The notes: a model not told the origin generated them from the letters alone. DNA of 64,000 bases from Nitrospira japonica (GCA_020725385.1 DYFC01000017.1:9055-73054), one strand, 5' to 3'; shown: positions 5,501-36,175, counted from the first letter of the stretch. A program made the numbers and translations.

Positions 5501-5876
5501 AAATAGTGTTACTTCCCAATCTCAATGAAACACCAATTGCACGGGGTTGCTCTGAAAAACTTTCAATAGTATTTCTTAAACTAAAATCTCTTATAAAAAT
5601 GGTATCATCAACCAGAAAAAGAACATAATCAAAAGGTGCAATCAAGGCAATAACATCTAACCTGAAATTTTCTTCTTTGATGAATTGAATAAAGGGATAT
5701 TTTTGATAGTCATTCTTTAATGCTTCATACTGTATCGCGTGTAAATCAGATGAAGTCTTAAATAATACTCTTGTTTCGAATTCATCTGCGTCTTTACAGT
5801 GAAGCAGAAAAGAACGGATTGTAGCATCAAGCTGTAAAGCACGGTCTTTAGAAAATATAAGAACTATACAACTCAT
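2499..5876 (-). CDS. Multidomain glycosyltransferase: N-terminal GT-A-like domain + GT2 + GT4 (GT-B) + C-terminal TPR repeats
   Basis: 1125 aa. aa 1-280 is a GT-A-like region (LFLVDD). aa ~286-510 is GT2 (VSIVIPCYNQ..FL..AV.S...QT; NDGSPDNT; PLDADD). aa ~565-930 is GT4 (GGAAKVA..., E..P....EAMSCGLPVV). aa ~960-1125 has TPR-like repeats. Confidence 0.85.
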   Translation of the reverse strand: MSCIVLIFSKDRALQLDATIRSFLLHCKDADEFETRVLFKTSSDLHAIQYEALKNDYQKYPFIQFIKEENFRLDVIALIAPFDYVLFLVDDTIFIRDFSLRNTIESFSEQPRAIGVSLRLGSNTIYCYSLDKAQRVPDLQSIGKNLFKYDWTKAEHDFGYPLEVSSSLYRAEDIIPFIAKLEFKNPNTLEYIMASNKSYFQSDFPEILCFEESVAFSAPMNIVQTEWKNRANKDTKYTTDNLAAIFSEGKRIDINEYINFIPNACHQEVRFKFIEPIKIDEYRPPMVSIVIPCYNQAHFLNEAVESVVNQTFQDWECIIVNDGSPDNTSEVARELISKYPDKKIILAEKQNGGLADARNFGIKNSRGKYILPLDADDKILPEMLENTVDLLENNPEIAIAYTDTIRFGSVNDTYPTGEYDLKRLSLINILNYCSLFRRKAWEAVGGYNTKMLWGYEDWDFWIACGEKGFFGKRVPKLLFMYRIKGDSMLTNAYKHDIELKAQIVLNHPNLYSLKTIKWAEKMLSKISNNEPVNQPRSLLCRIPVETELDSNGMIYGLYDSPPQKRLSIVHINTDDIAGGAAKVAWRLSETQRLKGHSSKMLVKNKWSNSDHSVSIPYEVDAALHESCYREGWLDYEFQKSYELVNHPLIQSSDIVHFHNLHGGYFSPFAISSLSHFKPVVWTLHDMQSFTGHCAHSFECEKWQTGCGNCPDLTIYPGLAVDSTSELWKDKKFIYEHSRLYIVVPSKWLKDKVEKSILGNQQIELIYNGVDTEVFRPYPKDKARKEFGLPADKLLFGNISNGGVLMSTFKGGEYVLKAMEKMRESFPDCEFLNIGASGDSGMPYVRNIPPVNDEKELAKLYSSLDIFLFTSLAENCPLAVLEAMSCGLPVVSFATGGVPEIIRDGIEGLVVETKDTDALISSLTGLAFSPDLREQFGKSARQRVCEMFDIKKISEQYEDLYLRIEEAERQRHVKINLEIDKIQSIIESGELKKANELLVNAVNRYPDSPDLNYMQAEVNVKSGNIARGKAILLDLVRLWPMNYVFLSNLALIYWEEGNYKIAEEYFIEALKASRFNRSVVLPYSQMLLNAGDITKARRLFETYLKIDPYDNEILSLIKKTEGILQD

Positions 5877-6307
5877 TTTTTCGAATACTTTTCAAAAGGA
5901 TTTTCTATAAGTATGCCTTCAATAATTTGTCCAGCGTTCAGGTCTTCGGTAAATATTTTATCAACCTTTGCCTCATATGCTGCAACAACTACCAAAGCGT
6001 CCCAGAAAGAGATGCGATATTTTTCCTCAATTTCGGATGCTCTTATAATAGACATCGGATGGTTTTCTTTAATATCCCAACTTAAATATGCCCTGATTAT
6101 TTCCCTTGCTTCTAAAGGTGAGATAGGCGATAGAATCTTTTTTGTTACATTAATATAAAATTCTTGCAATATCTGTGTGCTTAATACACCATTCCTCTTT
6201 TCCCACAGATCTTTTACAATTTGAAGTGCAATAGTGTGTTTCATACCCGCATCAAGATCATGTGCATAAATAAGGATATTTGTATCAAGAAAGATTTTAT
6301 CGCTCAT
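5873..6307 (-). CDS. vapC: PIN-domain ribonuclease toxin (VapC-like)
   Basis: FLDTNILIYA N-terminal acidic motif plus a later D/E (FTEDLN). Stop overlaps the glycosyltransferase ATG by 4 nt; start overlaps the antitoxin gene. Confidence 0.8.
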   Translation of the reverse strand: MSDKIFLDTNILIYAHDLDAGMKHTIALQIVKDLWEKRNGVLSTQILQEFYINVTKKILSPISPLEAREIIRAYLSWDIKENHPMSIIRASEIEEKYRISFWDALVVVAAYEAKVDKIFTEDLNAGQIIEGILIENPFEKYSKK

Positions 6308-6542
6308 GAATCTCTTCTCTTGAGCAAGTTATCTTGCCACCCATATGAAAACCTTTATCCAATATGGATAGTGCCTTCTTTTTGGAAATCGCATAAGATT
6401 CTTCTTGATTGATAATTTCTTTTAAAAAATCACTTAAGAGCCGGCTCAATGATGTGTCTCTTTTAGATGCAATAACTTTGCCTTTTTTTATCAAATCTTT
6501 TTCTAAACTCAAAGTAATATTTTGTTTCATTCTTATTTTCAT
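6297..6542 (-). CDS. vapB: VapB-type antitoxin (small, N-terminal ribbon-like DNA-binding segment)
   Basis: 81 aa, directly upstream of and overlapping the PIN gene by 11 nt. ITLSLEKDLIKKGK resembles the start of ribbon-helix-helix/DUF6364-type antitoxins. Confidence 0.6.
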   Translation of the reverse strand: MKIRMKQNITLSLEKDLIKKGKVIASKRDTSLSRLLSDFLKEIINQEESYAISKKKALSILDKGFHMGGKITCSREEIHER

Positions 6543-6673: not shown

Positions 6674-9061
6674 TTAATCTTTCTTTAATTTTTCCAATAA
6701 TTTCTTAGCGTTATTATTTTCAGGATCAAGTGTTAAAGCTGCAATTAAAAGATTCTGTGCTTTTTTATAATTTGAATTTTCTATTTCAATCTCTGCAAGA
6801 TTAATAAAAGATGGAACATGCCTGAAATCTTTCTGTAACCTTCTACTTAGCATTAAACTTTTTTCATTTCTTTTTGAAGAAGAAATAGGTTTGACCATTT
6901 CAACATGGTAACCTACTGTAAACTGATCAATAAAACATTTGTCATCTAATTCGAAAAGATAACGAGGTAATATCTCGTTAAATAGTTTGTAAATAAATTC
7001 AGCATATTCATGGTGTAAATGCTTATGTTTTTCAAATGTCCAAGCTACACGTGCGCATTCTTGAGAAAGCAACTTAAAAAAACCACCATTTGGTACGATT
7101 TCTATAATCTGTAAATTGAATTTATTCGCTATAAATTTATACCATTCTGGGGTAAATCCACCATAATAATGATAAGGAAGTTGGTGTAATCCGGAACCAA
7201 GTGGAGCTGTGAGCAATAGATGTCCATCTGGTTTTAATATACGTACAATTTCTCCAATCGCTTTAATTGGCTCGGGAACATGTTCAAGAACTTCGGTGCA
7301 AAGAATAACGTCAAAGTAATTATCTGGCACAGGAATATTAGTAATATCAGATTCAAAATCTATTGCTCCATATTCTGTTGTGCCACCGAGTTTTTCCCCA
7401 GTATATTTTTTAAAATCATGTGTTTTGTAATCACAGTGAACAAAATATGACCTATAAGGGCATGTTCCAGCACCAACATCTAATACACGTGCACCTTTAG
7501 GAATAGTTTTAGCTTTTTTCTGAACCCAATAGTCGCGATATAATTGATTAAACCCGTGAATTTCTGAAAGTGTTCTTTGATTTTTAGAGGAAAAACAAAT
7601 TGAGTCTAAAATTGAGTTATTTTGAAGGTAACTAAAAGCCTTCGGGGAATTTATAACATTATGTTGTTTGTTAAACATATCCCGGAGTTGTTTTTTCCAT
7701 ATTTCAAAAGAAGCTTTTTCATTAATTGATACAGTGCTTTCTAAAAGCAATTCGTCAGCGACTCGAAGGAGTTCATTAAAAGATAAAGTACGAGATTTAA
7801 ATGCAACTGCCTGTACATTTGATAAAAAAGGTTCTTTTTGCCATTGTGTTGTTTTTATATCGACTGGGTCAAATCCAAACTTAGTTAGCGTATGTTTGAA
7901 TCTATCAGAAAACCAATTGTCTAAATGAAAAGCCCACTCCGCGGTCTGGTCACCTGTTAAGTGACGGATAGCAGCTATTTTGAAACGCCACGGAGCATCT
8001 GAGATTATCATTTTTGCACTTCCAACAAAATCAGGTGTTTCGATACAAAGTTTTCCTCCAATTTTTAACCATTGATGCCATTTTATTAATAAATAAAGTG
8101 CAGTTACCCTGCTAAAATGTTCGAAGACATGATGTAAACGAATCTCGTCTACCGAGTCGGATGGAAAACCAAGGGTAAGAATATCAGCATAAATATCAGC
8201 CTTGACTTCCATCACGTTATGTTCTGATGGTGGAAAATCAATATTTACATAACCTTCAAGATACTGTTCTCCGCAACCGAGATGAAGACGAAGAGGTTGG
8301 TTTTCAGACCAGAGACCTTTTTGTCGTATTATATCGTATAAATTAATTTCCTGTTTTTCTACTAAATTTATTTCATTATCATTATCATGCTTTTTATACA
8401 TATCTGAATCTCTTGTGTAAATATCTCCCCATAATAAATCATTATTTAGACTTTCTTTTTCTATATAATTGAAGAGGATATCTTTACTAACCCATTTAGA
8501 AAAATTAAAGTTATTATTTTCTCCAAATGCAACATTGAATTCACTATATCCAATATCTTGAAGATATTGGATACATTTTTTAGCATCGTCCAAAAATTCG
8601 ATGGTAAATTCGAAAGATAAGAATGGAATTTTTTTTGATAAACCCCTTAGTACTTCATATTCAAATCCTTCAACATCAATTTTGCAATATTTTGGAACTC
8701 CATATTGTTGTATTACTTCATCCAATGTGGTTACTTCTACTTCTATTTGTTGATCCCATTCATAATTAGAAAATCTACCTTTTTTCCACCTATTTGATAA
8801 GGAAGAAATTGTAGGGGCAACGCTACAAATAGAAAGTAACATTTTGCCAGATTTTGCAGCAATACCTTTCCCGATAATAATTACATTTACATTATTGTTA
8901 AACCTTTTATGTAATTCTTTAACACAACTTGGTTGTGGCTCAATACATATAACTTTTGCACCTTTTTGAAGAAATTTATCAGCTTTACTACCAATATGTG
9001 CTCCTATATCAAATACTAAATCACCTTCTGAAATAAATAATTCTTCTAAAATTGTGCCCAT
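6674..9061 (-). CDS. Triple methyltransferase fusion: FkbM-family MTase + two class I SAM-dependent MTase domains + C-terminal TPR-like tail
   Basis: 795 aa. N-terminus has VFDIGAHIG...CIEP...KIDVEGFE (FkbM). The middle has LHLGCG...FEH..R (class I MTase). The third domain has VLDVGAG...VLEHV..P...I.RILKPGG. Confidence 0.8.
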   Translation of the reverse strand: MGTILEELFISEGDLVFDIGAHIGSKADKFLQKGAKVICIEPQPSCVKELHKRFNNNVNVIIIGKGIAAKSGKMLLSICSVAPTISSLSNRWKKGRFSNYEWDQQIEVEVTTLDEVIQQYGVPKYCKIDVEGFEYEVLRGLSKKIPFLSFEFTIEFLDDAKKCIQYLQDIGYSEFNVAFGENNNFNFSKWVSKDILFNYIEKESLNNDLLWGDIYTRDSDMYKKHDNDNEINLVEKQEINLYDIIRQKGLWSENQPLRLHLGCGEQYLEGYVNIDFPPSEHNVMEVKADIYADILTLGFPSDSVDEIRLHHVFEHFSRVTALYLLIKWHQWLKIGGKLCIETPDFVGSAKMIISDAPWRFKIAAIRHLTGDQTAEWAFHLDNWFSDRFKHTLTKFGFDPVDIKTTQWQKEPFLSNVQAVAFKSRTLSFNELLRVADELLLESTVSINEKASFEIWKKQLRDMFNKQHNVINSPKAFSYLQNNSILDSICFSSKNQRTLSEIHGFNQLYRDYWVQKKAKTIPKGARVLDVGAGTCPYRSYFVHCDYKTHDFKKYTGEKLGGTTEYGAIDFESDITNIPVPDNYFDVILCTEVLEHVPEPIKAIGEIVRILKPDGHLLLTAPLGSGLHQLPYHYYGGFTPEWYKFIANKFNLQIIEIVPNGGFFKLLSQECARVAWTFEKHKHLHHEYAEFIYKLFNEILPRYLFELDDKCFIDQFTVGYHVEMVKPISSSKRNEKSLMLSRRLQKDFRHVPSFINLAEIEIENSNYKKAQNLLIAALTLDPENNNAKKLLEKLKKD

Positions 9062-9084
9062 TATTTACCTGGTTCTTCTCCAAA

Positions 9085-9655
9085 TTAGTTGGTATAAGCG
9101 AAAGCATTTTTAATGATTAAAGAGAAATATTCTATATCATGAAACCCATAAGCTTTACGTTTAATAACCTTAAATTTTATTGTTAATCCCCTCCATACGG
9201 CTTGTATGAATTGGAAATCTGCAATGGTTAATAATCCCATAAGCATATTTCTCAAGGGTTTTGTCAAAGGCTATGACAGGCTTTATAGCACTTTCTTTAG
9301 CTATAGAACACCAGTGTTTCAAAAAGCTTTCCGCACATTTCCGATAGCGATACTGCCAAAGTTTTTTCAGATAATCTTTCAGGATATAAACTATTGTAAG
9401 GGCTTCATTCAACTTAAGAAGAACTTTAAGTTTTGGTTTTTCTTCTGGAAGAAGATTACTCTTATTCTTCAGAAGAATATATTTACTCCCTTTAATAACT
9501 TCTTTGCCCTCTTTATTTGCCTTTCTGTATTCCATATTACGAACTTTATCTATTACCTGACCAAAGGCTTTGACTACATGAAACTGGTCAAACACAATTG
9601 CAGCATGGGGACAACTTTCTTTTACTGCTTTGATATAAGGATCCCACATGTCCAT
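9085..9655 (-). pseudogene. ISL3-family transposase remnant (5'-truncated, frameshifted)
   Basis: MDMWDPYIKAV...FDQFHV...EGINNKI continues in another frame as KVIKRKAYGFHDIEYF (ORF 9085..9267). An extra T in the run near 9175..9185 breaks the frame. The N-terminal half of the usual ~400-aa protein is absent. Confidence 0.8.
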
Positions 9656-9973
9656 CGCAATAGCCTGTATAGAATTTTTTGTTCCTCAAAAAGGTTGTGT
9701 AACATATACTTGATTTTTAAATCTATTCATCTGATGCACTCTTTAGAGTAAATTTTTATTTTTAGACAATCTTTTAGGATGTCTATATTAACAAATGGCA
9801 GATATACAAAATCTGGTAATTGGTTACAAGCAGGCGAGTGCCCAAAAATATTAGGATGAATGAAATGAGGAGCGAAAAACGAACCCAACCTCTAAACTCC
9901 TTTTGATTTTTTTATTTAATTTTTACATAAAATGTCCTTTCTTTTCAATTAAAATCGTAGAAACGTGAATATA

Positions 9974-10140
9974 ATTAAAAGCGTAGAGCAGAGAGCTAAG
10001 AGCATAGAGTGAAAAACCGTAAGGCGTAAAACGGGAAAAACCGGGAATCGTGTCCGCTGCCCGTGACCGTAAGTAAAAATGTAAAACGTAAAATGTAAGG
10101 CGTGAAACGTAAAGCGTAAACGCGTAAAACGTAAGGCGTC
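9974..10140 (+). repeat. Heptad-repeat mosaic element, copy A (AGAGNNN x4, conserved core, then NNNNCGT heptads)
   Basis: agagcag/agagcta/agagcat/agagtga at 9985..10012. CGT or TGT recurs every 7 nt from 10080 to 10139. About 140 bp is homologous to 11981..12122. Confidence 0.85.
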
Positions 10141-10346
10141 TTATTTGCCCGAAGAATGCAGTTAAAAAAATTAGAAAGCAGACTTGCCTAGATTTATGAA
10201 GACTTATGCAAATAAGTCTTGAATATTTTTATTCAATGGAAAAAGATAAATTTCTTTTTATAATCCTATACGTTCTGCGTTTATCTGTGTCCCAATGCAT
10301 TTTTCGGGTGTATTACCATATTTATTCAGCATTTACTATAATTCCT

Positions 10347-10372
10347 GTCATCCTGAACTCGTTTCAGTATCT
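10347..10372 (+). repeat. GTCAT-hairpin element (solo copy)
   Basis: gtcatcctgaa-ctcgt-ttcagtatc; same architecture as the cluster at 15116..15304. Confidence 0.5.
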
Positions 10373-10511
10373 CTATATTTTTAAAAATAGATTCTAAAAT
10401 TCAGTGCGACATTGTATATATAGACTTTGAATCGAGAGCAGAGTCACATGAAAGGAGGTTTTGGACAGTCTGTAAATATTTTTTCTTGAAAAATCAACTA
10501 TTCACTTATCT

Positions 10512-10685
10512 CTACGACAACCTTTTAATGATTCTTTTAGCTAAGCCGTCTTCAATCTCTTTATGTCTTGGAATAGGTTGACTTTTACCTGTTTTAGGAT
10601 TTTTATACCAATCATGATTAGCACCGTGGCGAACGAAAATACAACCAATTGAATTAATTATTTTTATCAATTTTTCTCTTTTCAA
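10512..10685 (-). CDS. hicA: HicA-family mRNA interferase toxin (absent from ORF track)
   Basis: My translation: LKREKLIKIINSIGCIFVRHGANHDWYKNPKTGKSQPIPRHKEIEDGLAKRIIKRLS*. TTG start overlaps the hicB stop (TTTGA). The GxxH...P.H.KEI pattern is typical of HicA. Confidence 0.7.
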   Translation of the reverse strand: MKREKLIKIINSIGCIFVRHGANHDWYKNPKTGKSQPIPRHKEIEDGLAKRIIKRLS

Positions 10686-10873
10686 ATTGCTACTTCTAAT
10701 ATACTAAAAGGTTCTGCATCTGGTACTAATCCTTCTTTAATATCATTAGCTATTTCTATTAAATTATTTTTTAATTCTTCCAATGTCTTACCCTGACTTT
10801 CATAATCAGGATATTCCTGAATATGTCCTACATACCATTCTTTTTCTTTTTTATATATAATATTTATCTTCAT
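10682..10873 (-). CDS. hicB: HicB-like antitoxin (UPF0150 fold)
   Basis: MKINIIYKKEKEWYVGHIQEYPDYESQGKTLEELKNNL matches the HicB N-terminal domain pattern. Directly followed by hicA. Confidence 0.7.
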   Translation of the reverse strand: MKINIIYKKEKEWYVGHIQEYPDYESQGKTLEELKNNLIEIANDIKEGLVPDAEPFSILEVAI

Positions 10874-10999
10874 AATTTTATCCTTACAGCACTTTTTATG
10901 AATTTAAAAAGGTTTAGGGGTCAATCAGTCATCTCCTTACTTTTCATATTTTATTGATTTATATTAAAGTATAACCTTCTTTTGTTTCAACAGAATTTT

Positions 11000-11148
11000 G
11001 ACAATAGCGAGCAAGCCTGCAAGCAAACAACAATTGTTCTATGTACAATGTTCTAAGTTCTAAGTTCTATGTTCCATGTTCTACGTTCTAAGTTCTATGT
11101 TAAAAAGATAGCAGCAGCAGAAGAAGAAGTTATCAAGAAGCCAAGCAA
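11000..11148 (+). repeat. 149-bp direct repeat R1, left copy (contains 9 GTTCTAN-type heptads and a GCA/GAA triplet run)
   Basis: Matches 11801..11949 with 3 mismatches by manual alignment. Heptads gttctat gtacaat gttctaa gttctaa gttctat gttccat gttctac gttctaa gttctat lie at 11036..11098. Confidence 0.9.
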
Positions 11149-11330
11149 CAGCCGCAAGGCGTGAAACGTGAAACCGTAAAACGTAAAGTGTGATTTTTTT
11201 AACATTTTACTCTTTACGATTTACTTTTTATAGGAGAAAACGTAAATCTAAGAGTAAAAATAGCGTGAAATGTACGCACGTTAGGAGTAAAATTAAACTC
11301 TAAAATATTAAACATAAAACCGTAAAACGT
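11149..11330 (+). repeat. CGTAAAN heptad tract ending in a forward/reverse heptad hairpin
   Basis: cgtgaaacgtgaaaccgtaaaacgtaaagtg (forward), then tgatttttttaa, then cattttactctttacgatttac (reverse) form an imperfect hairpin around 11175..11218. More CGT-phased heptads extend to ~11330. Confidence 0.7.
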
Positions 11331-11401
11331 GCAACTTTGCTTTTTTTTACTAATAAAAGGTAAAATTGAATCTAACGTATATGAGAGGAGGTTTTTTCCC
11401 T

Positions 11402-11605
11402 TTGATTAAAAATTTTACTCTTGAATATTGGCTTGACGAAGGTTGGTATGTAGGTAGGTTAAAAGAAGTTCCCGGGGTGTTCAGTCAAGGTGAGACTATT
11501 GAAGAATTAGAAAAAAATATACAAGAAGCTTATAAATTAATGTTGGAAGAAGAGGAGCCAATCCGGGATAATGTTCAAGAAAAGGAGATTGAAGTCAAAG
11601 TTTGA
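11402..11605 (+). CDS. hicB: HicB-like antitoxin
   Basis: A TTG 11402 start (GAGGAGG at 11385..11391) gives IKNFTLEYWLDEGWYVGRLKEVPGVFSQGETIEEL, which aligns with the N-terminus of the 10682..10873 product. Alternative starts are ATG 11381 and TTG 11366. Confidence 0.7.
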   Translation: MIKNFTLEYWLDEGWYVGRLKEVPGVFSQGETIEELEKNIQEAYKLMLEEEEPIRDNVQEKEIEVKV

Positions 11606-11781
11606 AAAGACAAGAATTCATTAGGGAACTTGTCAATGCAGGATGTTACCTCAAAAGGCATGGTTCAAACCATGATATTTACATAAATCCTAAAACTGGC
11701 AGTAAATCACCTGTTCCAAGACACCATGAAATCAAAGGCAGTCTTTGTAAACTAATTAAAAAACAACTTGGTATCATATAA
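11602..11781 (+). CDS. hicA: HicA-family mRNA interferase toxin (absent from ORF track)
   Basis: My translation: LKRQEFIRELVNAGCYLKRHGSNHDIYINPKTGSKSPVPRHHEIKGSLCKLIKKQLGII*. TTG start overlaps the hicB stop in the same TTTGA arrangement as the first pair. Confidence 0.7.
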   Translation: MKRQEFIRELVNAGCYLKRHGSNHDIYINPKTGSKSPVPRHHEIKGSLCKLIKKQLGII

Positions 11782-11800
11782 ATATATCTATTAACCCGAT

Positions 11801-11949
11801 GACAATAACGAACAAGCCTGCAAGCAAACAACAATCGTTCTATGTACAATGTTCTAAGTTCTAAGTTCTATGTTCCATGTTCTACGTTCTAAGTTCTATG
11901 TTAAAAAGATAGCAGCAGCAGAAGAAGAAGTTATCAAGAAGCCAAGCAA
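11801..11949 (+). repeat. 149-bp direct repeat R1, right copy
   Basis: See 11000..11148. Together the two copies bracket the hicBA pair 11402..11781. Confidence 0.9.
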
Positions 11950-12233
11950 AAAAGACCGTAAAACGTAAAGTGTAAGTATGATTAAAAGCGTAGAGCAGAG
12001 AGCTAAGAGCATAGAGTGAAAAAACCGTAAGGCGTAAAACGTGGAAAACCGGGAGTCGTGTCCGTTGTCCGTGACCGTAAGCAAAAACGTGAACTGTAAA
12101 CACGTAAAATGTAAGGCGTGAAATGTAAAAAAGTAGCCAAGTAGCCAAGAAGCCAAGAACAGCCATAAAGCGTAAAGCGTTAAACGCTAAATGTGGATGA
12201 TGATTTTCTTACACTTTATTTGTACGATTTATG
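11950..12233 (+). repeat. Heptad-repeat mosaic element, copy B
   Basis: Order of modules: CGTAAAN heptads, AGAGNNN x4, core homologous to copy A, (T/A)AGCCAAG x3, then forward/reverse heptads (gcgtaaagcgttaaacg ... cttacactttatttgtacgattt). The two ORFs 11882..12166 and 11896..12156 are translations of this repeat. Confidence 0.85.
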
Positions 12234-12381
12234 AAAATTTGTATTCTAACTAAAAAATGCAGATATTGTCATAAAGCCCCTTAAATGCTGGAGATGCTAA
12301 AATAATCTGAACTTGTTCAGAATCTAAATCTTTCCACCTTTAAACTAACAGGGATTAGAGGTGATTTTATGTTTCTTACTC

Positions 12382-12648
12382 TTAGACTATTCCTTTTTCT
12401 ATTAATACCCTTAGATAGTCTTCGCGTGACATGGGACATGATATTAAATCTTTAAAGTCTTTTTGTGAAAGCTTTAATTGTCCTCTAATTTTATTTACTA
12501 CCTTTTCTGAAATTTCTCCTTTACCATGTGAATAATGAACCCTAAGAATTTTTTTTCCGTTAACTATCAGCCATCCATAATTATGACCTGTGGAACGCAC
12601 TTGTAGTTTTAGTTTCCTAAAGACTTTTTCAATAGAGCTTTTCTTCAT
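12382..12648 (-). CDS. Divergent HicA-like toxin candidate
   Basis: 88 aa. The pattern LKLQVRSTGHNYGWLIVNGKKILRVHYSHGKGEI resembles HicA (G.H....P.H.GK.I) with a C-terminal extension. 4-nt overlap with the upstream gene. Confidence 0.45.
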   Translation of the reverse strand: MKKSSIEKVFRKLKLQVRSTGHNYGWLIVNGKKILRVHYSHGKGEISEKVVNKIRGQLKLSQKDFKDLISCPMSREDYLRVLIEKGIV

Positions 12649-12989
12649 TTAATTTCAATAAATTCTTCTAAATATGCAAGCCATTTTGCTGGCAATTTCC
12701 CTAAATTCGTTCTGTCGTTTTTCAAATCCTCATACAATGCTATAATCTCATCGCATAAAAGATTAATCGCCTCAAACTCTGTATCAGCATATGCAAAAGC
12801 TTCAATTTCATCAAGAGAAGAAATGACTGAATTTTTATCCATCTCTATGGTAATATAAAGGGGTTTTCTTAAAACATAATTTGGATGCTTCAAAGAGTTT
12901 ATAGGCAATACTTTATAATTTTTTTCTATTTTATTAAGTATTTTTCTCGAAAGTAAATTATATTGCTTATCAGTCAATATTGTCTGCAT
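12645..12989 (-). CDS. HicB-like antitoxin candidate
   Basis: 114 aa. The segment LYITIEMDKNSVISSLDEIEAFAYADTEFEAINLLCDEIIALYEDL resembles the HicB/UPF0150 beta-alpha core. Translationally coupled to 12382..12648. Confidence 0.45.
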   Translation of the reverse strand: MQTILTDKQYNLLSRKILNKIEKNYKVLPINSLKHPNYVLRKPLYITIEMDKNSVISSLDEIEAFAYADTEFEAINLLCDEIIALYEDLKNDRTNLGKLPAKWLAYLEEFIEIK

Positions 12990-13102
12990 AATTCAACTCC
13001 TTATATATATTTTTAAATATCTTTATTTTATCACAATAAAATATATATTTATCAGCAGAATAAAAATTAAAGCAATTATAAGATTGTTAAATGGCAACCG
13101 GG

Positions 13103-13252
13103 TATCAAGAAGCCAAGCAACAACCGTAAGGCGTGAAACGGGAAAAACCGGTAATCGTGTCCGTTGTCCGTGACAGTAAGTAAAAACGTAAAATGTAAAT
13201 TATGGAAATTGATTTTTCTAACATTTTACTTTTTACGATTTACTGTTTACGG
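13103..13252 (+). repeat. Heptad-repeat mosaic element, copy C
   Basis: Order of modules: tatcaagaagccaagcaaca (3' end of R1), core ccgtaaggcgtgaaacgggaaaaaccggtaatcgtgtccgttgtccgtgac, then a hairpin pairing cgtaaaatgtaaa (13187..13199) with tttactttttacg (13225..13237) at 12 of 13 positions. Confidence 0.85.
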
Positions 13253-13291
13253 AATAGAGAGAAAAGCAAAGAATTTGATTCATTTTTCTTG

Positions 13292-14326
13292 TTAAGCTTC
13301 TATAAACTTTTTATAAAAATCTAAGAGATTAGGTGGCACTTGATGAATAAAAGGATTAATTTCCTCAGCTTTTGCGTAATGAAATAAAGCTTTTGATGTA
13401 TTACCGAGTATATCGTGGATTGAGCTTATAAAATTGTGCAAAAAAGCAAACCCCGGGTATTTTTTAAGAAGATTTTCTGCTTCATTGATTGCTTCGCTAT
13501 ATTTTTTATTCTTCGCAAAAGAAAACATTTTCCTTTGAGAATCTTGTAAATCATTTGCAGTTTTACACTTAATACAAAGATATTCTTCTGCATAAGTAGA
13601 TTTGTAGTATAATGGTCTGAAGCCTTTGAAAAATCCATAAACATTATTGACAATTTTTTCATAGTTGTTGTTCTTTTCAAATTGCTCATTTTTCCAAGTA
13701 GTATATTGGGGATTATCACTAAAATTCATGTGTAATGCTGTTTGTTTATCATTCAGATAAATGTTCAATAATCCTACAAGTTGAATTCTTATTCCATAAT
13801 CAAGATCTTCTTGCCCATATACTCCATAATCTTCACACCAATAACCAAGTAGTTTTTCGGTTCTCTTTGGAATTAAAATACAAGCTCCTCCTAAATTGCC
13901 ATGTTTGATTATTACATGATGTCCGTTAATTTCTTGAGGAGGATATTCTTTGTTTTCGAAATTATAGGCAACAGCTCCGGCTACAGGTATATCTTCAATT
14001 GTTTTAACCATTGGAGCAAGCCATGGAGATTTTTGAATCATAACATCGTTATCTAATTTTAAATAATATTCAGCATCTGGCTCACATAGCCATCCAATAT
14101 TTGATGCCTTTGCAACTCCTAAATTGCTATCAAGACAAAAAAGATTTTTTATCAATTCTCTCGACTTCAAATTGTTCAAATATTTTCTTGTACCGTCAGT
14201 GCTATTGTTATCCACAACAGTAATTACATGAGGGTAATCAGCATATGCAAATATAGATTCAATGCATTTTTTAGTGTATTCAAGTCTATTGAAGGTAACA
14301 ATACAAATATTTATAAAATTGTTCAT
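13292..14326 (-). CDS. Family 2 glycosyltransferase with C-terminal TPR-like segment
   Basis: ICIVTFNRLEYTKKCIESI...VVDNNSTDGT...LDND motifs; helical repeat tail. Confidence 0.8.
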   Translation of the reverse strand: MNNFINICIVTFNRLEYTKKCIESIFAYADYPHVITVVDNNSTDGTRKYLNNLKSRELIKNLFCLDSNLGVAKASNIGWLCEPDAEYYLKLDNDVMIQKSPWLAPMVKTIEDIPVAGAVAYNFENKEYPPQEINGHHVIIKHGNLGGACILIPKRTEKLLGYWCEDYGVYGQEDLDYGIRIQLVGLLNIYLNDKQTALHMNFSDNPQYTTWKNEQFEKNNNYEKIVNNVYGFFKGFRPLYYKSTYAEEYLCIKCKTANDLQDSQRKMFSFAKNKKYSEAINEAENLLKKYPGFAFLHNFISSIHDILGNTSKALFHYAKAEEINPFIHQVPPNLLDFYKKFIEA

Positions 14327-15115
14327 ATATATTGATATAATTTAACATAAAAATGTATTTTAAAAAGCAAAAAACTAAATTGCCAATAATTTATGAAGAT
14401 TAAAGAGCATATAGTGGATAGCGAAGTTTTAAAACATACCATTCAACCATATTTTTAAAGTCTAAAAGGAAAAAAGACTTTATTTTTGGTTCTTCTCAAA
14501 TCGATTCTTTCTGAGTCGTTTTTTAAAACTTTCATTAATAATGTTTCTTAATGGCGCTATATCTGAATAATATATAAATGTATCTTTCTTAAACTGAATA
14601 AATTTTTCCTTATCCCTGCAGAAAATCAATTGTCTCTTTGATACTATCTCAAATGCAATGACAGGTTTCTTTGTTAGAGTTCACTGAAAGTTGATTCCTG
14701 ATTATTGTCTTTTTCCATTATGCCCGAAGCCTGCCCTCGAAATACTTTGCCGGAGTTTTCAATCGGGCATCCAATTTCTTTATATTATGGATTCCCCCTT
14801 AATGACTGCAGTGATGACGACATTAACGTATGTTTTTTTATACAATGTTTTTAGGTACTATTATAAGAAGATTAATAAAAAAGAGTGAAATGCTGACCCC
14901 TTTTTATTTCAGATTATTACATGTTATATTTATTACACATTATTTATTACACACTATTTATACGGTTTACCCAGTTTATATGGTTTGCACGGTTTAATCC
15001 AGATAACATAGGAATTGTATTTGCAGGATACAAGATGCAAAAATAAAAGACAAAAAAGACAGGATATAAAATTCCCATTAGAAAAGGGGAATGAGGGTGG
15101 TTATAATTATATGTT

Positions 15116-15304
15116 GTCATTCTCTGGCTCTCTGGTTCCACCAAACAAATGTCAGACAAGCCAGAGTATAAACTTGACCAGATAATTCCAGTGTCATACC
15201 ATGATTTGATCGTGGTGTTCAGAGGAAGTATAGGAAATGGATTCCCCGATTAAATCCGGGAATGACTCTTTTTTCTGTCATTCTCGGGCTTGACCCGAGA
15301 ATCC
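15116..15304. repeat. Cluster of four GTCATTC-stem-loop-stem-GAATCC hairpin elements
   Basis: Copies: 15116..15170 (gtcattctctggct...agccagagta); 15193..15222 (gtcataccatga-tttga-tcgtggtgttc); 15239..15266 in reverse orientation (ggattccccgattaaatccgggaatgac); 15277..15304 (gtcattctcgggcttgacccgagaatcc). A stemless relic lies at 14789..14806. Confidence 0.75.
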
Positions 15305-15448
15305 AGAAGATTGAAATAATGATTCCCTGAGCCTGCAAAAAAAACGACGGGTGGGAAAGTTAGGGAGTGACAATATAAATTATAAAAGGAAAATGTAAAA
15401 GTTAGATGATAAAGTTAATTTTAATAATAACTTGTGAGGAATGATTCT

Positions 15449-16693
15449 ATGTTGATAGTTCAAAAATACGGAGGAACATCTGTTGGCAGCATTGAAAGAA
15501 TAAAAGCTGTAGCTGATCGTGTATCGAATACAAAAAAACAAGGAAATGATGTTGTTGTAATCGTTTCGGCAATGTCAGGTGAAACCGATAAATTAATCGG
15601 TCTTGCAAATCAAATCTCGGCAGAACCGGATGGACGGGAGATGGATCTTTTACTTTCTTCAGGAGAACGCATCAGCGCAGCGCTTACTGCCATTGCAATT
15701 TCAGAACTTGGATTTAAATCAATGTCTTTTACCGGAAGACAGACAGGTATTATTACAGATGAAGCACATACAAAAGCCAAAATTGAATATATCTCTGGAG
15801 AAAGAATTAAAAAGGCTATAAAAAAAGGAATTATTCCGGTAATTGCAGGATTTCAGGGTGTTACAGAAACATCCGATGTAACAACATTAGGCCGTGGTGG
15901 CTCAGATCTTTCCGCTGTTGCGGTTGCTGCTGCGTTAAAGGCAGACTTGTGCGAGATTTACACGGATGTTGATGGTGTATATACAACCGATCCGAATATT
16001 GTGCCTGATGCAAGGAAATTAGATAAAATATCTTATGATGAGATGCTTGAATTAGCAAGTCTTGGAGCAAAAGTTCTTCAGACGAGGTCTGTTGAATTTG
16101 CCAAGAAATATAATGTTCCTGTTGTTGTAAGATCAAGTTTCAACAATAATCCCGGTACACTTGTTGTTAAGGAGGATAAGGATATGGAAAAAGTTGTTGT
16201 TTCAGGTGTAGCCTACGATAAAAATCAGGCAAAAATTACAGCTATTGCTGTGCACGATAAACCAGGTGTCGCTGCAATGTTGTTTAAGGCTATTGCAGAT
16301 GCAAATATAGTTGTCGATATGATAGTGCAAAATATAAGCAGTGATGGCAAATCTACCGATATTTCTTTTACAGTGCCTAAAACTGACAGCAGAAAGGCTT
16401 TAAAGATTACCGAAGAAATCGTATCTGAAATAGGTGCAAAGGAAGTTAAATTGAGGGAAGACATCGCAAAAATTTCAATTGTCGGTGTAGGTATGAGAAC
16501 ACATTCAGGAGTTGCAGCTACAATGTTTGATACACTCGCAAAGCATAATATAAACATAATGATGATTAGCACATCGGAAATAAAAATTTCCTGTATTATT
16601 GATGTGAAATATACAGAGCTTGCGGTGAGGGTATTACATGAAGCTTTCGGGCTAAGCAAGAATGTAAAAACAAAATCAAAAAAGAAGCTTTAA
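15449..16693 (+). CDS. lysC: Aspartate kinase (two C-terminal ACT domains)
   Basis: [12 protein letters not shown] start, [14 protein letters not shown] motifs. GAGGA sits 8 nt upstream of ATG 15449; the track start GTG 15434 is less likely. Confidence 0.9.
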
Positions 16694-20701: not shown

Positions 20702-20849
20702 GGGGCCGGGGTATGACTTTACAGAATCATAGAGGAGGTGAGAAAGACGGTGTTTTAAGTAAAAATTCCCATTTTTTCTCTATGTTATAAAGTAATTCTT
20801 TATTTCTCCTCGATAAATTTGTCATAACAACCAGCCTGTTAAATATTCC

Positions 20850-21025
20850 CACCCTGCCGTGTAAAGCGAAATTAGATCCCATTTTTGTTATAAGTGGGTG
20901 CCCTGAAAGGACCCGTAGGCTTCCCAGTATTAAACAGGGCATGCACAAAAGGCCTTTACACAGGCTCCCTAAAGATCTAATTTGCCGGATCAACATGTTC
21001 GCCTTATCACTAACAGGGCAGGTAA
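20850..21025. ncRNA. Candidate structured RNA / GC-rich element of unknown class
   Basis: Locally GC-rich island in an AT-rich spacer. Complementary pairs: 20856..20866 with 20954..20965 (11 bp, 1 bulge); 20869..20878 with 20974..20983 (10 bp); 20899..20905 with 20935..20941 (7 bp). The strand is not determined. Confidence 0.25.
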
Positions 21026-21129
21026 TTTATTACCCTGAAATATATTCCTCCTGAATTAATTAATTTTATTCTTAGATTTAGAATATACTATAAAAGGGTT
21101 TTAAGGCAAGAAGAAAATTTTAAAATTAA

Positions 21130-23908: not shown

Positions 23909-24206
23909 AATAAAAGTATATCAAAAATAATCTAAAAAAACTTATAGTTTAGTTAAGATATTCAAGTTTTCTTAAGTATTATAGCTGAAATTGATATTAT
24001 ACTGGTAATTATCAGCTAAATAATTCATAATGCAAGATATTATGTGAGTAAGATAGCAAGCCACCGAGCTATCAAGCGAAAAAGCGGAGAGCATAGAGCT
24101 TAGAGAAGCAATACACTTGATCTAATAGGCTATATTTTTTTATTTAAAATAGATTAATTTATTGAAAAGATTTCCCAAGGTGAACAAGGTGATAAAAATA
24201 TCAGAA

Positions 24207-26639: not shown

Positions 26640-28505
26640 TTAAAAACTAAAACTCATGCCCGCTGAAAATTGAACAGGCGGCATTGGATAATCTTTAAGA
26701 ATCTCGAAATTTCTATCAAATATATTTTTACCTATGACAAAGATTTCTGTAGGAATCTTCCAGATATCTAATTTTTGAGCAATTTTCCCGTCGAGCAAGA
26801 AATAGCAACCCGGATCTCCTTTCTCTACTTTATAACGATGTATGTAACTTCCTTCAAAAGCAATAGTATTTCCCTTGAAAGGATGCAGGGAAACATTTCC
26901 TTTAATCTGATGGCGGGTGCTAAAGCGTATTTTTTTGTCTGAAGTTCTATCCTGAGGGTCCATAAAAGTATAGCTTAACCCGATGTCAAGATAATCAAGG
27001 TGTAAGCTACTTTCTGTTTCAAATCCAGCAACACGTGTTTTTGCAATATTCACAGGAGACCATTTGAAAGGGCTAATTTCCTGCCATTGGATAAGGTCTT
27101 TTGATTGTTTAATAAATCCAACTGCTTTTATATTTGCAATCTTTCCGAAGAATTTATTTATATTTACCTCAAATTCTGTTGACTTTTCCGGTTTTAAATC
27201 CGGATTACCCTCAGCCCATCCAGTATCAGGCCAGTAAAGAGCATTCATTTCAGGAATACGGAATCCCTGTCCTATAGAGAAAGAAAGATTTGTCTCGTAC
27301 GGGAGTTTTATTAATAAAGAAGCTTTCGGGCTGAACCTATCCTCTGATGAAATGGAATCATATCTTAGCCCGAGAGTCAATATTAAATATTTTTTCAAAG
27401 AAGTTTCATTTTGAAGGAATATCCCTTTTCTTGTTCTGCTATGTCTTCCAATTGACTCATTTTCATTAATATTGTTAGTGCTATCAATATCCTCTTCGAG
27501 AACTTCAATTCCACCTGTCAAGAGATTCATTGAGCCTAAAGAAAGACTATGCTGAAGATCAAATCCAAGAACATGGTTTTTATGAGTATTATCTTCAAGA
27601 CCTGGATTCATATAATCAATTGTTGAGTTGTGACTGTAAAATTTCATGATAGAATCTTTATATTTAATATTAATCCCGGCAAGAAAATTCTTGTCTTTTT
27701 CGTTTGCTTTTGGTGTTGGCCATGATAATGAACCCGGAGAGCCAGCGTCTCTGAAATTATAATCAAAGGAAATATCTGTTCTAATGTCTTTAGAAATATC
27801 ATAGGTTATTTTAACGCTTGCGGATTCTGAATCATATTCACTATTTTCTCTAAAACCGGCTGAGGAATTTTTTGATAGAGAAAGATAGAAACCAGCGTTT
27901 CTTATGCGTTGTGATGTATTAAAATTCAAGTCTTTTGTAACAAATCTACCATATGATGCTGAGATACTTGTCTTTGGAGTTTCAGGTATTTTTGTAATGA
28001 TATTTATAACACCTCCCATAGCATCCGCACCATATAATGCTGATGAAGCTCCACGCAATATCTCTATTCTTTCTATATTATCAACCGGTATTGAAAGAGC
28101 GTTTATGTCAACCTGTCCATCGCCCGGCTTGTTAAGTCTCTTACCATCAATAAGCACAAGAACCTGTGCTGAAGTTGAAGACCTCAGACTTACACTCGAT
28201 GATGAACCTTTATTACCATATTCAAAGAAAGTTAAACCTGTAATGTTCCTTAGAATCTCGGATATATTTGTATAACTGCTATTTTCAATTTCCTTTTTTG
28301 TTATAACAGTAACATCCTGTGGAATATCCTCAATTGATTCCTCAATTTTTGTTGCAATAACAACAATCTCCTCAAATGATACGACTTTTTCTTCTGCAGA
28401 TAAAGAAGTAATAAGTGAAAAGTAATAAGTGAGAAGTAAAGAAATGCAAATAATGAATTTTGAAAAGTGATGACTGATGACTGATGACTGATAACTTTTT
28501 TCCAT
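26640..28505 (-). CDS. btuB: TonB-dependent outer-membrane receptor, cobalamin/corrinoid type (riboswitch-controlled)
   Basis: TonB box-like EEIVVIATK, plug domain motifs, terminal aromatic F. GAGGGAGGA precedes ATG 28505 (the track TTG start at 28535 is unlikely). A cobalamin riboswitch lies directly upstream. Confidence 0.85.
   Translation of the reverse strand: MEKSYQSSVISHHFSKFIICISLLLTYYFSLITSLSAEEKVVSFEEIVVIATKIEESIEDIPQDVTVITKKEIENSSYTNISEILRNITGLTFFEYGNKGSSSSVSLRSSTSAQVLVLIDGKRLNKPGDGQVDINALSIPVDNIERIEILRGASSALYGADAMGGVINIITKIPETPKTSISASYGRFVTKDLNFNTSQRIRNAGFYLSLSKNSSAGFRENSEYDSESASVKITYDISKDIRTDISFDYNFRDAGSPGSLSWPTPKANEKDKNFLAGINIKYKDSIMKFYSHNSTIDYMNPGLEDNTHKNHVLGFDLQHSLSLGSMNLLTGGIEVLEEDIDSTNNINENESIGRHSRTRKGIFLQNETSLKKYLILTLGLRYDSISSEDRFSPKASLLIKLPYETNLSFSIGQGFRIPEMNALYWPDTGWAEGNPDLKPEKSTEFEVNINKFFGKIANIKAVGFIKQSKDLIQWQEISPFKWSPVNIAKTRVAGFETESSLHLDYLDIGLSYTFMDPQDRTSDKKIRFSTRHQIKGNVSLHPFKGNTIAFEGSYIHRYKVEKGDPGCYFLLDGKIAQKLDIWKIPTEIFVIGKNIFDRNFEILKDYPMPPVQFSAGMSFSF
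28403..28496 (-). repeat. Heptanucleotide repeats inside the btuB signal-peptide coding region
   Basis: Plus strand: gatgact x3 perfect (28469..28489) plus gataact; NNNAAGT x5 (28403..28437: aagaagt aataagt gaaaagt aataagt gagaagt). Confidence 0.85.
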
Positions 28506-28559
28506 TTTTCCTCCCTCGGGAAATAATTTATTCAAAGCATGTTGTTAGCTCTGAAATTT

Positions 28560-28812
28560 TAGTTTCTACTGATCTGGATAGGTCTTCCGGCTTCAGGCAA
28601 TTTTATGTTTCCTACTAACCTTCCTTCCCGGAGAAACCGTTCAAACCATTTAAGCAGTTAAAACAGTTCTACTCCAGTGGATTAAAGACAGTGATTGAGA
28701 TTCTTCTAATTCACTACCTCACTAATTTCTAATTTACTGTCTTTCCGGGTTTTCGTTCCATTCACGGCTGCGGGGCAGCGATGGCTTTCCACCATTCTTC
28801 CCTGAATCCAGA
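28560..28812 (-). promoter_or_regulatory. Cobalamin (AdoCbl-type) riboswitch 1
   Basis: Minus-strand reading contains agggaagaatggtggaaagccatcgctgccccgcagccgtga, then ccactggag, then a B12-box-like gaagccggaagacctatcc. Sits upstream of btuB. Confidence 0.85.
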
Positions 28813-28880
28813 TTTATTAATAATTACCTGAATACATAGACTTAATTTATATCACCTCCTTTCATGTAAATTTTGATTAA

Positions 28881-35567: not shown

Positions 35568-35690
35568 TTAGTTATTATGGCAATTTTCTATTGGCAAAAT
35601 TAGGAAGAAAAAATTGAAAAGTAATTTAATACAGATAATAAAGTTAGAAAACCCGAAGCTTAAAACTGAAAATTGAAAACTTATTTTCAT
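35568..35690 (-). CDS. Leader mini-ORF: relic of a btuB-type signal peptide
   Basis: My translation: MKISFQFSVLSFGFSNFIICIKLLFNFFFLILPIENCHNN*. It aligns with the btuB N-terminus MEKSYQSSVISHHFSKFIICISLLL. GAGGGAG SD. Its TAA stop overlaps the SD (TAAAGGAG) of the next gene. Confidence 0.35.
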   Translation of the reverse strand: MKISFQFSVLSFGFSNFIICIKLLFNFFFLILPIENCHNN

Positions 35691-35759
35691 CTTTTCTCCC
35701 TCGAGAAAATTTTCAGGTTGTTTGTCCAAGTTTTAAAGTTCTTTTTAAACTTTTAACTT

Positions 35760-35997
35760 GGAACTTTTTGCTCTGGATAGGTCTTCCGGCTTAGGGCAGT
35801 TTAATTTCTTTTCTACTAACCCGCCTTCCCGGAGAAACCGTTCAAACTGTTCAATCAGTTCTAACAGTCTTACTCCAGTGGCTTAAAGACAGTGATTGAA
35901 ATTCTTCTAATTCACTGTTTTCCCGGGTTTTCGTTCCCATCACGGCTGCGGGGCAGCGGGAGAATTGCCATTGGCTCACTCCTCTTCCCTGACTTCC
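35760..35997 (-). promoter_or_regulatory. Cobalamin (AdoCbl-type) riboswitch 2, paralog of riboswitch 1
   Basis: Minus-strand reading contains cagggaagaggagtgagccaatggcaattctcccgctgccccgcagccgtga, then gccactggag, then taagccggaagacctatcc. Long stretches are near-identical to 28560..28812. Confidence 0.85.
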
Positions 35998-36175
35998 GAA
36001 TATTTTATAACATATCACACAGATAATTTTCAATTGAAAAGCGAATAGCGTAGAGCGAAGAGCAAAGAGAAAAAAATTTATAACTCGATACACGAAACTG
36101 AAAATTAGCTAACTGTAAAAAAGTTGTTAGTAATCTGTATGGAACGGATATGGAGAAAGGACACTGCTAACGGAT

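Follow-up and report, generated by a model that had tools for sequence, protein, structure and literature searches.

The window analysed here is a stretch of 64,000 nucleotides (nt) from an assembly labelled Nitrospira japonica (GCA_020725385.1, DYFC01000017.1:9055-73054); positions are counted from its first letter, and copy counts of repeat modules refer to these 64 kb of the source genome. Between a transposase remnant and a glycosyltransferase gene, at 9950-13291, lies an island in which four composite elements rich in tandem heptanucleotides, named A, D, B and C in map order, alternate with three small two-gene cassettes, as an earlier note on this DNA had described. The explanation that we favour, and hold to be probable, is that the island consists of unstable heptanucleotide simple-sequence DNA of the short tandemly repeated repetitive (STRR) or long simple sequence repeat (SSR) type combined with an imperfect palindrome, that this composite was duplicated to four copies, and that the same style of repeat is widespread in Thermodesulfovibrionales-like Nitrospirota.

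Autocorrelation at lag 7 exceeded that of 300 shuffles in all four composites (z = 5.8 for A, 8.5 for D, 8.4 for B and 5.9 for C), confirming the 7-nt periodicity that had been noted before, and lag 14 was also elevated. Strict period-7 DNA made up 421 of the 1995 non-coding nt of the island (21%), as compared with 282 of 60,658 nt (0.5%) in the remaining window. Coverage of the island at lags 5, 6, 8, 9 and 10 was 0-46 nt, and the rest of the window yielded three segments at lag 7, two at lag 14 and none or one at every other lag from 4 to 15. The modules were found at the coordinates given for them earlier, both by reading the sequence and with Tandem Repeats Finder (Table 1). The accompanying statement that all non-coding DNA of the island is built from these modules went too far, as the composites account for 1034 of the 1995 non-coding nt (52%). 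The exclusion of CRISPR stands: the units are contiguous and of 7-8 nt, whereas CRISPR repeats are of 23-50 nt with unique spacers. A 'GT anchor' of the heptad units was set aside because its enrichment was weak (GT in 21 of 27 units against 65% expected, [AC]GT in 16 of 27 against 37%); enrichment of GTRA (8 of 16 against 12%) came mostly from one locus.

By the order and content of their modules, the four composites are copies of a single non-coding element, all in direct orientation, that have lost different parts of it. In full, the element runs M2 (with the GTTCTAN array), CGT heptads, M1 (with the AGAGCNN array), the core, CGTAAAN heptads, the loop and the reverse heptads. Composite B is the fullest copy, and after its core come CGT heptads, the (T/A)AGCCAAG repeats, CGTAAAG heptads and a weak forward/loop/reverse unit at 12164-12233. 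Composite D is without M1 and the centre of the core, and its M2 comprises the GTTCTAN array, the GCA/GAA triplet run and a AAGCCAAG tail; composite A is without M2 and the reverse arm. The tail of M2 together with the start of the core is 93% identical between 11131 and 13103. The core itself was indeed recovered in three copies, with a length of 81 nt. On the - strand of composite B are overlapping open reading frames (ORFs) at 11882-12166, 11896-12156 and 12003-12140, of 94, 86 and 45 codons. They are probably not genes; these long - strand ORFs exist because the heptads put stop triplets on the + strand, and composite A, for instance, has 21 + strand stop codons and only 2 on the - strand.

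The same locus is present in other samples, on the short contigs L088 and L083 (the latter from SRR27730030). L088 has no difference from the window over 741 alignment columns that take in the whole of cassette 2 and the tail of D; its 44 differences are all inside composite B, at 11841-12044. They consist of a 21-nt deletion (three heptads of the GTTCTAN array), a 6-nt deletion (two triplets of the triplet run) and 17 substitutions, four of which convert the core of L088 to the variant found in window copy C. In L083, cassette 3 is 95.9% identical to that of the window, while the heptad part of composite B has indels of -7 and +7 nt and the array of 8-mers is replaced. Between these near-identical strains the arrays vary in whole-unit steps, which directly shows simple-sequence-repeat dynamics, and the composite stands out as a hot spot of mutation. 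The differences are consistent with, but not proof of, conversion between copies. Both contigs end at or within repeated modules, which fits assemblies broken by repeats.

The forward heptads, loop and reverse heptads of two composites fold as long imperfect hairpins. Hairpin C (13167-13253) has a predicted energy of -30.9 kcal/mol, with z = -6.6 on the + strand and -7.0 on the - strand relative to shuffles, and its segments 13187-13199 and 13225-13237 pair at 12 of 13 positions, as reported earlier; for hairpin D (11161-11231) the values are -24.2 kcal/mol and z = -3.7. The corresponding unit of composite B (-14.2 kcal/mol, z = -1.2) folded no better than shuffles. The earlier description of three composites ending in a foldable unit thus holds for C and D but not for B. 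When the 7-nt blocks of the 3' arm were permuted, the fraction of permutations that folded at least as well was 0.26-1.0 in most hairpins of the window and of related genomes, with exceptions that include window hairpin C (0.008), L054 (0), L058_d (0.017) and L058_b (0.043). Most hairpins therefore keep their stability under permutation, and their arms pair via a common unit core, the variable positions giving periodic mismatches, and not as collinear inverted copies. By the definition of a GC-rich stem with a T run directly after it, the window hairpins are not intrinsic terminators.

Table 1. Coordinates of the island, its repeat modules and composites, its cassettes, and heptad arrays elsewhere in the window
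Feature	Coordinates	Strand	Content or method
ISL3-family transposase remnant, truncated (left boundary of island)	9085..9655	-	Pfam DDE_Tnp_ISL3, E = 6.3e-45, only profile positions 60-220 of 240
GT2 glycosyltransferase with TPR (right boundary of island)	13292..14326	-	Pfam Glycos_transf_2, E = 1.1e-14
Composite A	9955..10140	+	Short CGT heptads; M1 (9965-10016; AGAGCNN x4, 9985-10012); core 10012-10092; CGTAAAN run 10076-10139
Composite D	10999..11253	+	M2 10999-11148; core-start remnant and CGT heptads 11149-11191; loop and reverse heptads
Composite B (fullest copy)	11800..12236	+	M2 11800-11949; CGT units; M1 11972-12023; core 12020-12100
Composite C	13103..13258	+	M2 tail 13103-13120; core 13119-13199; loop and reverse heptads
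Cassette 1	10512..10873	-	hicA 10512-10685; short hicB-like gene 10682-10873
Cassette 2	11366..11781	+	hicB; hicA 11602-11781
Cassette 3	12382..12989	-	114-aa gene 12645-12989, overlapping 88-aa gene 12382-12648
AGAGNNN x4	9985-10012 and 11992-12019		Read from sequence 9000-14500
CGT/TGT anchor, 7-nt spacing, one 8-nt unit	10080-10139
GTTCTAN x9-10	11036-11105 and 11837-11906
(T/A)AGCCAAG x3, period 8	12131-12157		Tandem Repeats Finder
GCA/GAA triplet run	11111-11130
Period-7 array, 4.3 copies	9980-10009		Tandem Repeats Finder
Period-7 array, 8.3 copies	10076-10134		Tandem Repeats Finder
Period-7 arrays, 7.4 copies; period 28 at 92% match	11050-11101 and 11851-11902		Tandem Repeats Finder
Further period-7 arrays	11160-11187, 11197-11230, 11987-12016, 12166-12180, 13224-13250		Tandem Repeats Finder
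Core, 81 nt x3, 88-90% identity	10012, 12020, 13119		Direct-repeat analysis
Module M2, 150 nt x2, 98% identity	10999 and 11800		Direct-repeat analysis
Module M1, 52 nt x2, 94% identity	9965 and 11972		Direct-repeat analysis
Module M5, loop and reverse heptads, 63 nt x2, 79% identity	11191 and 13210		Direct-repeat analysis
Degenerate M2/M1-like stretch in another intergenic spacer	24050..24110	+	…atagcaagcc…tatcaagcgaaaaagcggagagcatagagcttagag
Two heptad arrays, AAGTRAN x5 and TGATGAC/TGACTGA x4	28403..28508	-	In frame, in signal-peptide codons of TonB-dependent receptor
AGAGCNN-type heptad array beside second cobalamin riboswitch	36032..36076	+

The island is only one of several places where heptad arrays and heptad-built hairpins of these unit types occur in the window; others are at 24050-24110, 28403-28508, 35662-35681 and 36032-36076. 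The stretch at 24050-24110 was not present in the orthologous spacer of the 97% relative (see below). The two arrays at 28403-28508 are at the start of a gene for a TonB-dependent receptor (26640-28535, - strand) that is directly downstream of a cobalamin riboswitch (28560-28826). About 35 codons at the beginning of this gene are composed of the two arrays (AGTYATC x4, followed by AAGTRAN x5 in reverse), reading MEKSYQSSVISHH…LLLTYYFSLITS, so that the hydrophobic core of the signal peptide is encoded by repeats. The equivalent array in a related locus, L059, is TGTCACC x4 and breaks the reading frame; this may reflect phase variation or an error of assembly. At the second cobalamin riboswitch (35759-36034, - strand), an AAAACTG-type array at 35662-35681 is located in the start of the downstream gene and the AGAGCNN-type array is on the other side. 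Arrays of period 14 and 9/18 were seen upstream of the aspartokinase gene at 14927-14996 (TATTTATTACACAC; …ACGGTTT…), and a similar 9-nt array, TGACACGGT x8, is found between two multihaem cytochrome genes in the close relative (L089, 7671-7743). Short, GC-richer palindromes at 14700-14810 and 15225-15300 (ggattcccc…gggaatgac and gtcattctcgggcttgacccgagaatccag) resemble another dispersed repeat family.

Related genomes were searched, one per species, with a GC-rich 20-mer of the core. Most of the 78 matches were chance matches in GC-rich genomes and were kept as controls only; the real matches were in metagenome-assembled genomes (MAGs) designated Nitrospirae, Thermodesulfovibrio, 'Deferribacteres' and 'Deltaproteobacteria'. 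There the motif mostly forms the left arm of a hairpin in which CGTGNNN heptads precede NNNCACG heptads. When the left half of the core (28 nt) was used to scan metagenomes, no match was obtained. In locus L058, hairpins are found between prs, a tRNA gene, the gene upstream of pth, which we take to be ctc/L25, and pth, the gene names being assigned from translated ends. An in-frame CTTGACC x4.3 array at 2248-2277 of this locus lengthens the C-terminal part of the putative peptidyl-tRNA hydrolase (pth) by about ten residues (QGQGSRVKGQ). L059 (Nitrospirota MAG042) has at least 12 arrays in 8 kb, most of them within genes: at 3400-6320, in-frame heptad arrays of 30-46 nt are inside genes read as cbiP, cbiB and cobD, and AGTGAAT units form a forward/reverse hairpin in a variable loop of a cobalamin riboswitch; arrays are also at the start of a putative TonB-type receptor gene. 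Its unit types AGAGCNN, CGTRANN and AGTRANN match those of the window. In L086 (640-10070; also L084 and L087), each of eight spacers of a putative S10-spc ribosomal-protein operon contains one heptad hairpin of 50-100 nt, with arms of tandem heptads, a different unit in each spacer and mismatches about every 7 nt.

The MAG M_MaxBin.054 (L002, L011, L014, L018 and others) carries an element of about 250 nt with a central CGTG-heptad hairpin at no fewer than 12 loci, often at contig ends; the elements adjoin leuA, hisD, an aminotransferase gene and also VapBC-type genes, and CCTTTTT follows the hairpins. By eye, the flanks of this element look partly inverted (gtggcataaa…ctttataaagg), and a fragment of it also occurs in a Thermodesulfovibrio MAG (L075/L085). 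A permissive Rfam scan of five related loci matched only a tRNA and cobalamin riboswitches. In 457 kb of unrelated loci used as controls, the shared unit types were found in a single Acidobacteriota MAG and nowhere else. In this control (L071, 5311-6042) there are arrays of AGGTCAC, ACCAGTG, AGTTCTC and ACTGAGA, including a forward/reverse GTTCNNN pair, so the heptad repeat style also exists outside Nitrospirota.

Since the same units and hairpins are located beside housekeeping, tRNA and ribosomal genes, in a riboswitch loop and inside genes, the repeat style is lineage-wide and not tied to cassette boundaries. The special cassette-flanking architecture proposed earlier is therefore not upheld, as these unit types are also found at other places in the window and in unrelated gene contexts in the relatives. 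Likewise, the argument that the signal cannot be coding because seven is not a multiple of three is valid for the island but fails as a general rule, given the in-frame arrays within genes of the relatives.

The cassettes between the composites can be only partly assigned. Cassettes 1 and 2 are HicAB toxin-antitoxin systems by Pfam: their HicA proteins matched HicA_toxin with E = 1.5e-11 (44.7 bits) and E = 1.3e-12 (48.1 bits), respectively, the Pfam cut-off being 27 bits. The antitoxin of cassette 2 matched HicB_lk_antitox (E = 8.6e-5) and UPF0150 (E = 1.1e-5), and that of cassette 1 matched UPF0150 with E = 0.0018, which is under the Pfam cut-off. The true start of hicB in cassette 2 is likely a TTG near 11405, after GAGGAGG. 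The proteins of cassette 3 matched no family in Pfam, NCBIfam or PADLOC, so the proposal of three hicBA-type cassettes is established for two and only plausible for the third. Its 88-aa protein is a member of a widespread family of ~88-aa proteins. A profile of this family gave a weak match in PDB to the HicA structure 9svk_A (E = 0.19), and one of 30 members matched HicA_toxin (E = 0.011). The AlphaFold (AF2) model, with a predicted local distance difference test score (pLDDT) of 75, has an alpha-beta-beta-beta-alpha fold plus two helices; its best Foldseek match was 1whz, presumably a HicA-family structure (probability 0.99, template-modelling (TM) scores 0.58/0.70). This weak but convergent evidence suggests that the protein is remotely HicA-like. 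The cassettes run in both directions. The composites, at 88-98% identity, are more alike than the genes they flank: HicA1 and HicA2 share only 52% identity, so that the cassettes are not recent duplicates.

To the left, the ISL3 remnant is accompanied by methyltransferase and glycosyltransferase genes; to the right is the GT2 gene. The neighbourhood also includes genes for an aspartokinase and a citramalate/isopropylmalate synthase-like protein. The aspartokinase is 83-88% identical to proteins of MAGs labelled Nitrospirota, Thermodesulfovibrionales or Thermodesulfovibrio, and 97% identical to that of a further relative. On this protein similarity, the source organism appears to be Thermodesulfovibrionales-like (Nitrospirota). 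Synteny with the 97% relative is kept downstream of the aspartokinase gene and lost immediately upstream, so that the polysaccharide and toxin-antitoxin region is strain-specific. Alignment with this relative (region 15434-15449) places the aspartokinase start at ATG 15449 and not at the upstream GTG. Loci around a 63%-identical GT2 homologue (L079-L082) had no synteny with the window and no period-7 arrays, and were uninformative. A 6S RNA gene was detected by Rfam at 20842-21027 on the - strand (75.9 bits).

Heptanucleotide repeats of several kinds have been described in other bacteria. The STRR sequences of heterocystous cyanobacteria are dispersed, largely non-coding heptanucleotide arrays, with several unit families per genome and no assigned function; the STRR papers found here employ them solely for fingerprinting. 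Their units, CCCCAGT, TTGGTCA and CAACAGT, differ from CGTAAAN, GTTCTAN and AGAGCNN, as the earlier note had recognized; these units and the Thermodesulfovibrionales-like host, in another phylum, rule out strict STRR membership. In the broad sense, the island is an STRR-like heptanucleotide long SSR, having both tandem units and whole-unit length polymorphism. MacGregor (2015; PMC4679880) described intergenic regions in Microcystis, Gramella, Aequorivita and Elizabethkingia that hold mixtures of heptamers, TAACTGA among them, within a wider occurrence in Beggiatoaceae, Cyanobacteria and Bacteroidetes, with near-identical repeat-rich spacers at more than one locus. In that study, Cyanothece strains differed mostly by indels in 7-nt steps, arrays were occasionally within ORFs and contigs broke in repeats; it also quotes Mrazek (2007) to the effect that heptanucleotides are the most abundant class of longer SSRs in most surveyed prokaryotic genomes. 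Our arrays share with these assemblages the tandem heptamers mixed within a spacer, the near-identical loci, the 7-nt-step differences between strains, the arrays in ORFs and the contig breaks, and the array at 28468-28496 is TGACTGA/TAACTGA-like. They differ in being in Nitrospirota, in their dominant units (CGTAAAN, GTTCTAN, AGAGCNN), in not being concentrated just upstream of start codons, and in forming forward/loop/reverse hairpins and a composite of 150-440 nt that is present four times around toxin-antitoxin cassettes.

In Geobacter metallireducens, four to five tandem heptanucleotides are found at dozens of sites between and within genes; some classes of site are mostly paired and drawn across both strands, and the elements were taken to be RNA elements or sites for regulators (Aklujkar 2009; PMC2700814). 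Those elements differ from ours in being GC-rich (GGACCGG, MTYCTGA) and of fixed copy number, and no composite of several arrays was described. The tandem repeats of Borgs, as presented in the part of PMC9879509 considered here, are similarly fast-evolving and independently arising, occur in intergenic regions and in genes, and create new peptide segments; unlike ours they belong to archaeal extrachromosomal elements, and that part mentions no 7-nt period and no hairpin design. The literature searched contained no specific account of heptamer repeats for either Nitrospirota or Thermodesulfovibrio. With precedents in cyanobacteria, Beggiatoaceae, Bacteroidetes and Geobacter, the island is a known type of simple-sequence DNA in another lineage, and the mixed heptamer assemblages of PMC4679880 and the intergenic and intragenic arrays of PMC2700814 speak against the earlier supposition that nothing of the kind had been described.

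The favoured explanation, simple-sequence DNA with a duplicated composite, would work as follows. Slipped-strand mispairing would lengthen and shorten the arrays, and recombination or gene conversion between composites may duplicate, delete, homogenise and shuffle the copies. Selfish toxin-antitoxin cassettes would have gathered in this permissive, recombination-prone, IS-scarred DNA, the repeats not being a dedicated cassette system. Any function would be secondary: the hairpins may act as barriers at RNA 3' ends, as stability elements or as insulators between oppositely oriented cassettes, and the forward arrays give stops in all three + strand frames. Several points weigh against this explanation. 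Recombination between composites is deduced from sequence patterns, not observed. BLAST of M1, M2, the core and M5 against the rest of the window gave no additional copies, and a regular-expression search found there only short AGAGC-type arrays. The window hairpins have no downstream T run, and a terminator consensus scan was negative there. An exact motif of 20-25 nt, TCGTGTCCGTTGTCCGTGAC(C)GTAA, is common to the window and several MAGs, and a unit vocabulary is common to genomes of 33-56% GC, which is not expected from in-situ slippage of arbitrary sequence; nor does slippage predict the recurrence of the forward/loop/reverse design across genomes. The shared motif, vocabulary and hairpin design could point to a mobile element or to some binder or generator.

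Other explanations were weighed. The most novel, which we regard as possible though improbable, is that a heptad 'grammar' common to Thermodesulfovibrionales-like bacteria and certain other anaerobe MAGs would imply an undescribed sequence-specific generator or binder, the island being one hot spot. The units of this grammar include CGTGNNN/CGTRANN, AGTRANN, AGTTNNN, AGTCNNN, GTTCNNN and AGAGCNN, arranged in direct arrays and in forward/loop/reverse hairpins with periodic mismatches; they are found in riboswitch loops, in intergenic spacers including those of ribosomal-protein operons, and in frame within housekeeping genes. Candidates would be a single-stranded nucleic-acid binder with a heptamer footprint, a template-switching repair pathway or a trans-acting mobilising enzyme. 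This reading is based on what the favoured explanation does not account for, namely the 7-nt period, the vocabulary common to different genomes and the recurrent hairpin design.

In a second explanation, which seems unlikely to us, the composites are selfish palindromes similar to repetitive extragenic palindromes (REPs) and bacterial interspersed mosaic elements (BIMEs), or to miniature inverted-repeat transposable elements (MITEs), mobilised in trans, e.g. by a Y1 transposase of the REP-associated tyrosine transposase (RAYT) type, and the heptads are their internal structure. The high-copy element of M_MaxBin.054, the exact motif in genomes that differ in GC and the hairpins in intercistronic operon spacers, which are REP-like, fit this explanation. 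The mosaic modules also recall BIMEs, which in the part of PMC3333891 considered here are abundant, imperfect, intergenic or intercistronic palindromes in mosaic combinations; compared with that account, our arms are 7-nt periodic, their sequence varies from hairpin to hairpin, the four copies are in one orientation instead of alternating as REPs do in BIMEs, and no RAYT is known for them. Direct- and inverted-repeat analysis found no terminal inverted repeats around the window composites, only the heptad arms, in agreement with the earlier note that saw no insertion sequence (IS) or MITE termini; target-site duplications were not searched for. As the units in L086 change from hairpin to hairpin, these cannot be copies of a single element; the genes scanned around the island included no transposase apart from the ISL3 remnant, and the differences between strains are unit-step indels and not the presence or absence of whole elements.

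In a third, which we consider distinctly unlikely, the heptad arrays are binding sites with one protein per 7 nt, either an omega-like DNA binder or a single-stranded nucleic-acid binder such as a cold-shock-domain protein, that regulate or insulate their neighbours. Omega dimers and cold-shock domains have a 7-nt footprint, and the omega repressor of inc18 plasmids such as pSM19035 binds direct and inverted heptads next to a toxin-antitoxin operon, an arrangement similar to the 7-bp direct and inverted runs seen here. Units with fixed and one to three variable positions, the tolerance of most hairpins to block permutation of one arm and the vocabulary common to several genomes are all in keeping with such sites. 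For the TAACTGA repeats, S1, Csp or CsrA have been proposed as binders (PMC4679880). Against binding sites are the many unit sequences per island and per genome, the in-frame arrays inside housekeeping genes and signal peptides, and the fast unit-step turnover between strains, which speaks against tight constraint. No ribbon-helix-helix or other DNA-binding domain was found in the island proteins, the HicB proteins being short forms, and omega-type WATCACW pairs were not enriched (10 found against 11.5 expected).

An integron-like array, with the composites as attC-type sites that capture toxin-antitoxin cassettes, is largely refuted and very improbable. Toxin-antitoxin cassettes are common in chromosomal integrons, and here similar imperfect hairpins in direct orientation do alternate with dissimilar small cassettes. 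However, the genes up to ~9 kb away in both directions include no recognized integrase, no composite has an RYYYAAC…GTTRRRY pair (the sole pair, 12991-13092, is within chance), the cassettes are in both orientations, the composites vary by simple-sequence indels, and the relatives have the same repeat style beside housekeeping and ribosomal genes. It is equally hard to credit, in spite of the in-frame heptad arrays of the relatives, that the composites encode a small RNA or that peptides are made from the three - strand ORFs of composite B given above, the longest of 94 codons: the core folded no better than shuffles (z = -0.15), a permissive Rfam scan of the island had no match in the composites, no Shine-Dalgarno sequence was seen before the ORFs by eye (no motif scan was made), the openness of the - strand follows from an A-rich, stop-rich + strand, and indels of 7 and 21 nt with substitutions between strains would not keep a product.

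The locus and its two near-identical variants are a compact natural example, in a new phylum, of heptad arrays that shift by whole units while the flanking genes are identical. In the related MAGs, the same units build hairpins in operon spacers and extend the products of essential genes by peptide segments. A binder or generator, should there be one, would account for an old oddity in the texture of bacterial genomes; if there is none, the island would simply be unstable repeat DNA in which selfish cassettes are trapped and at which metagenome assemblies break.

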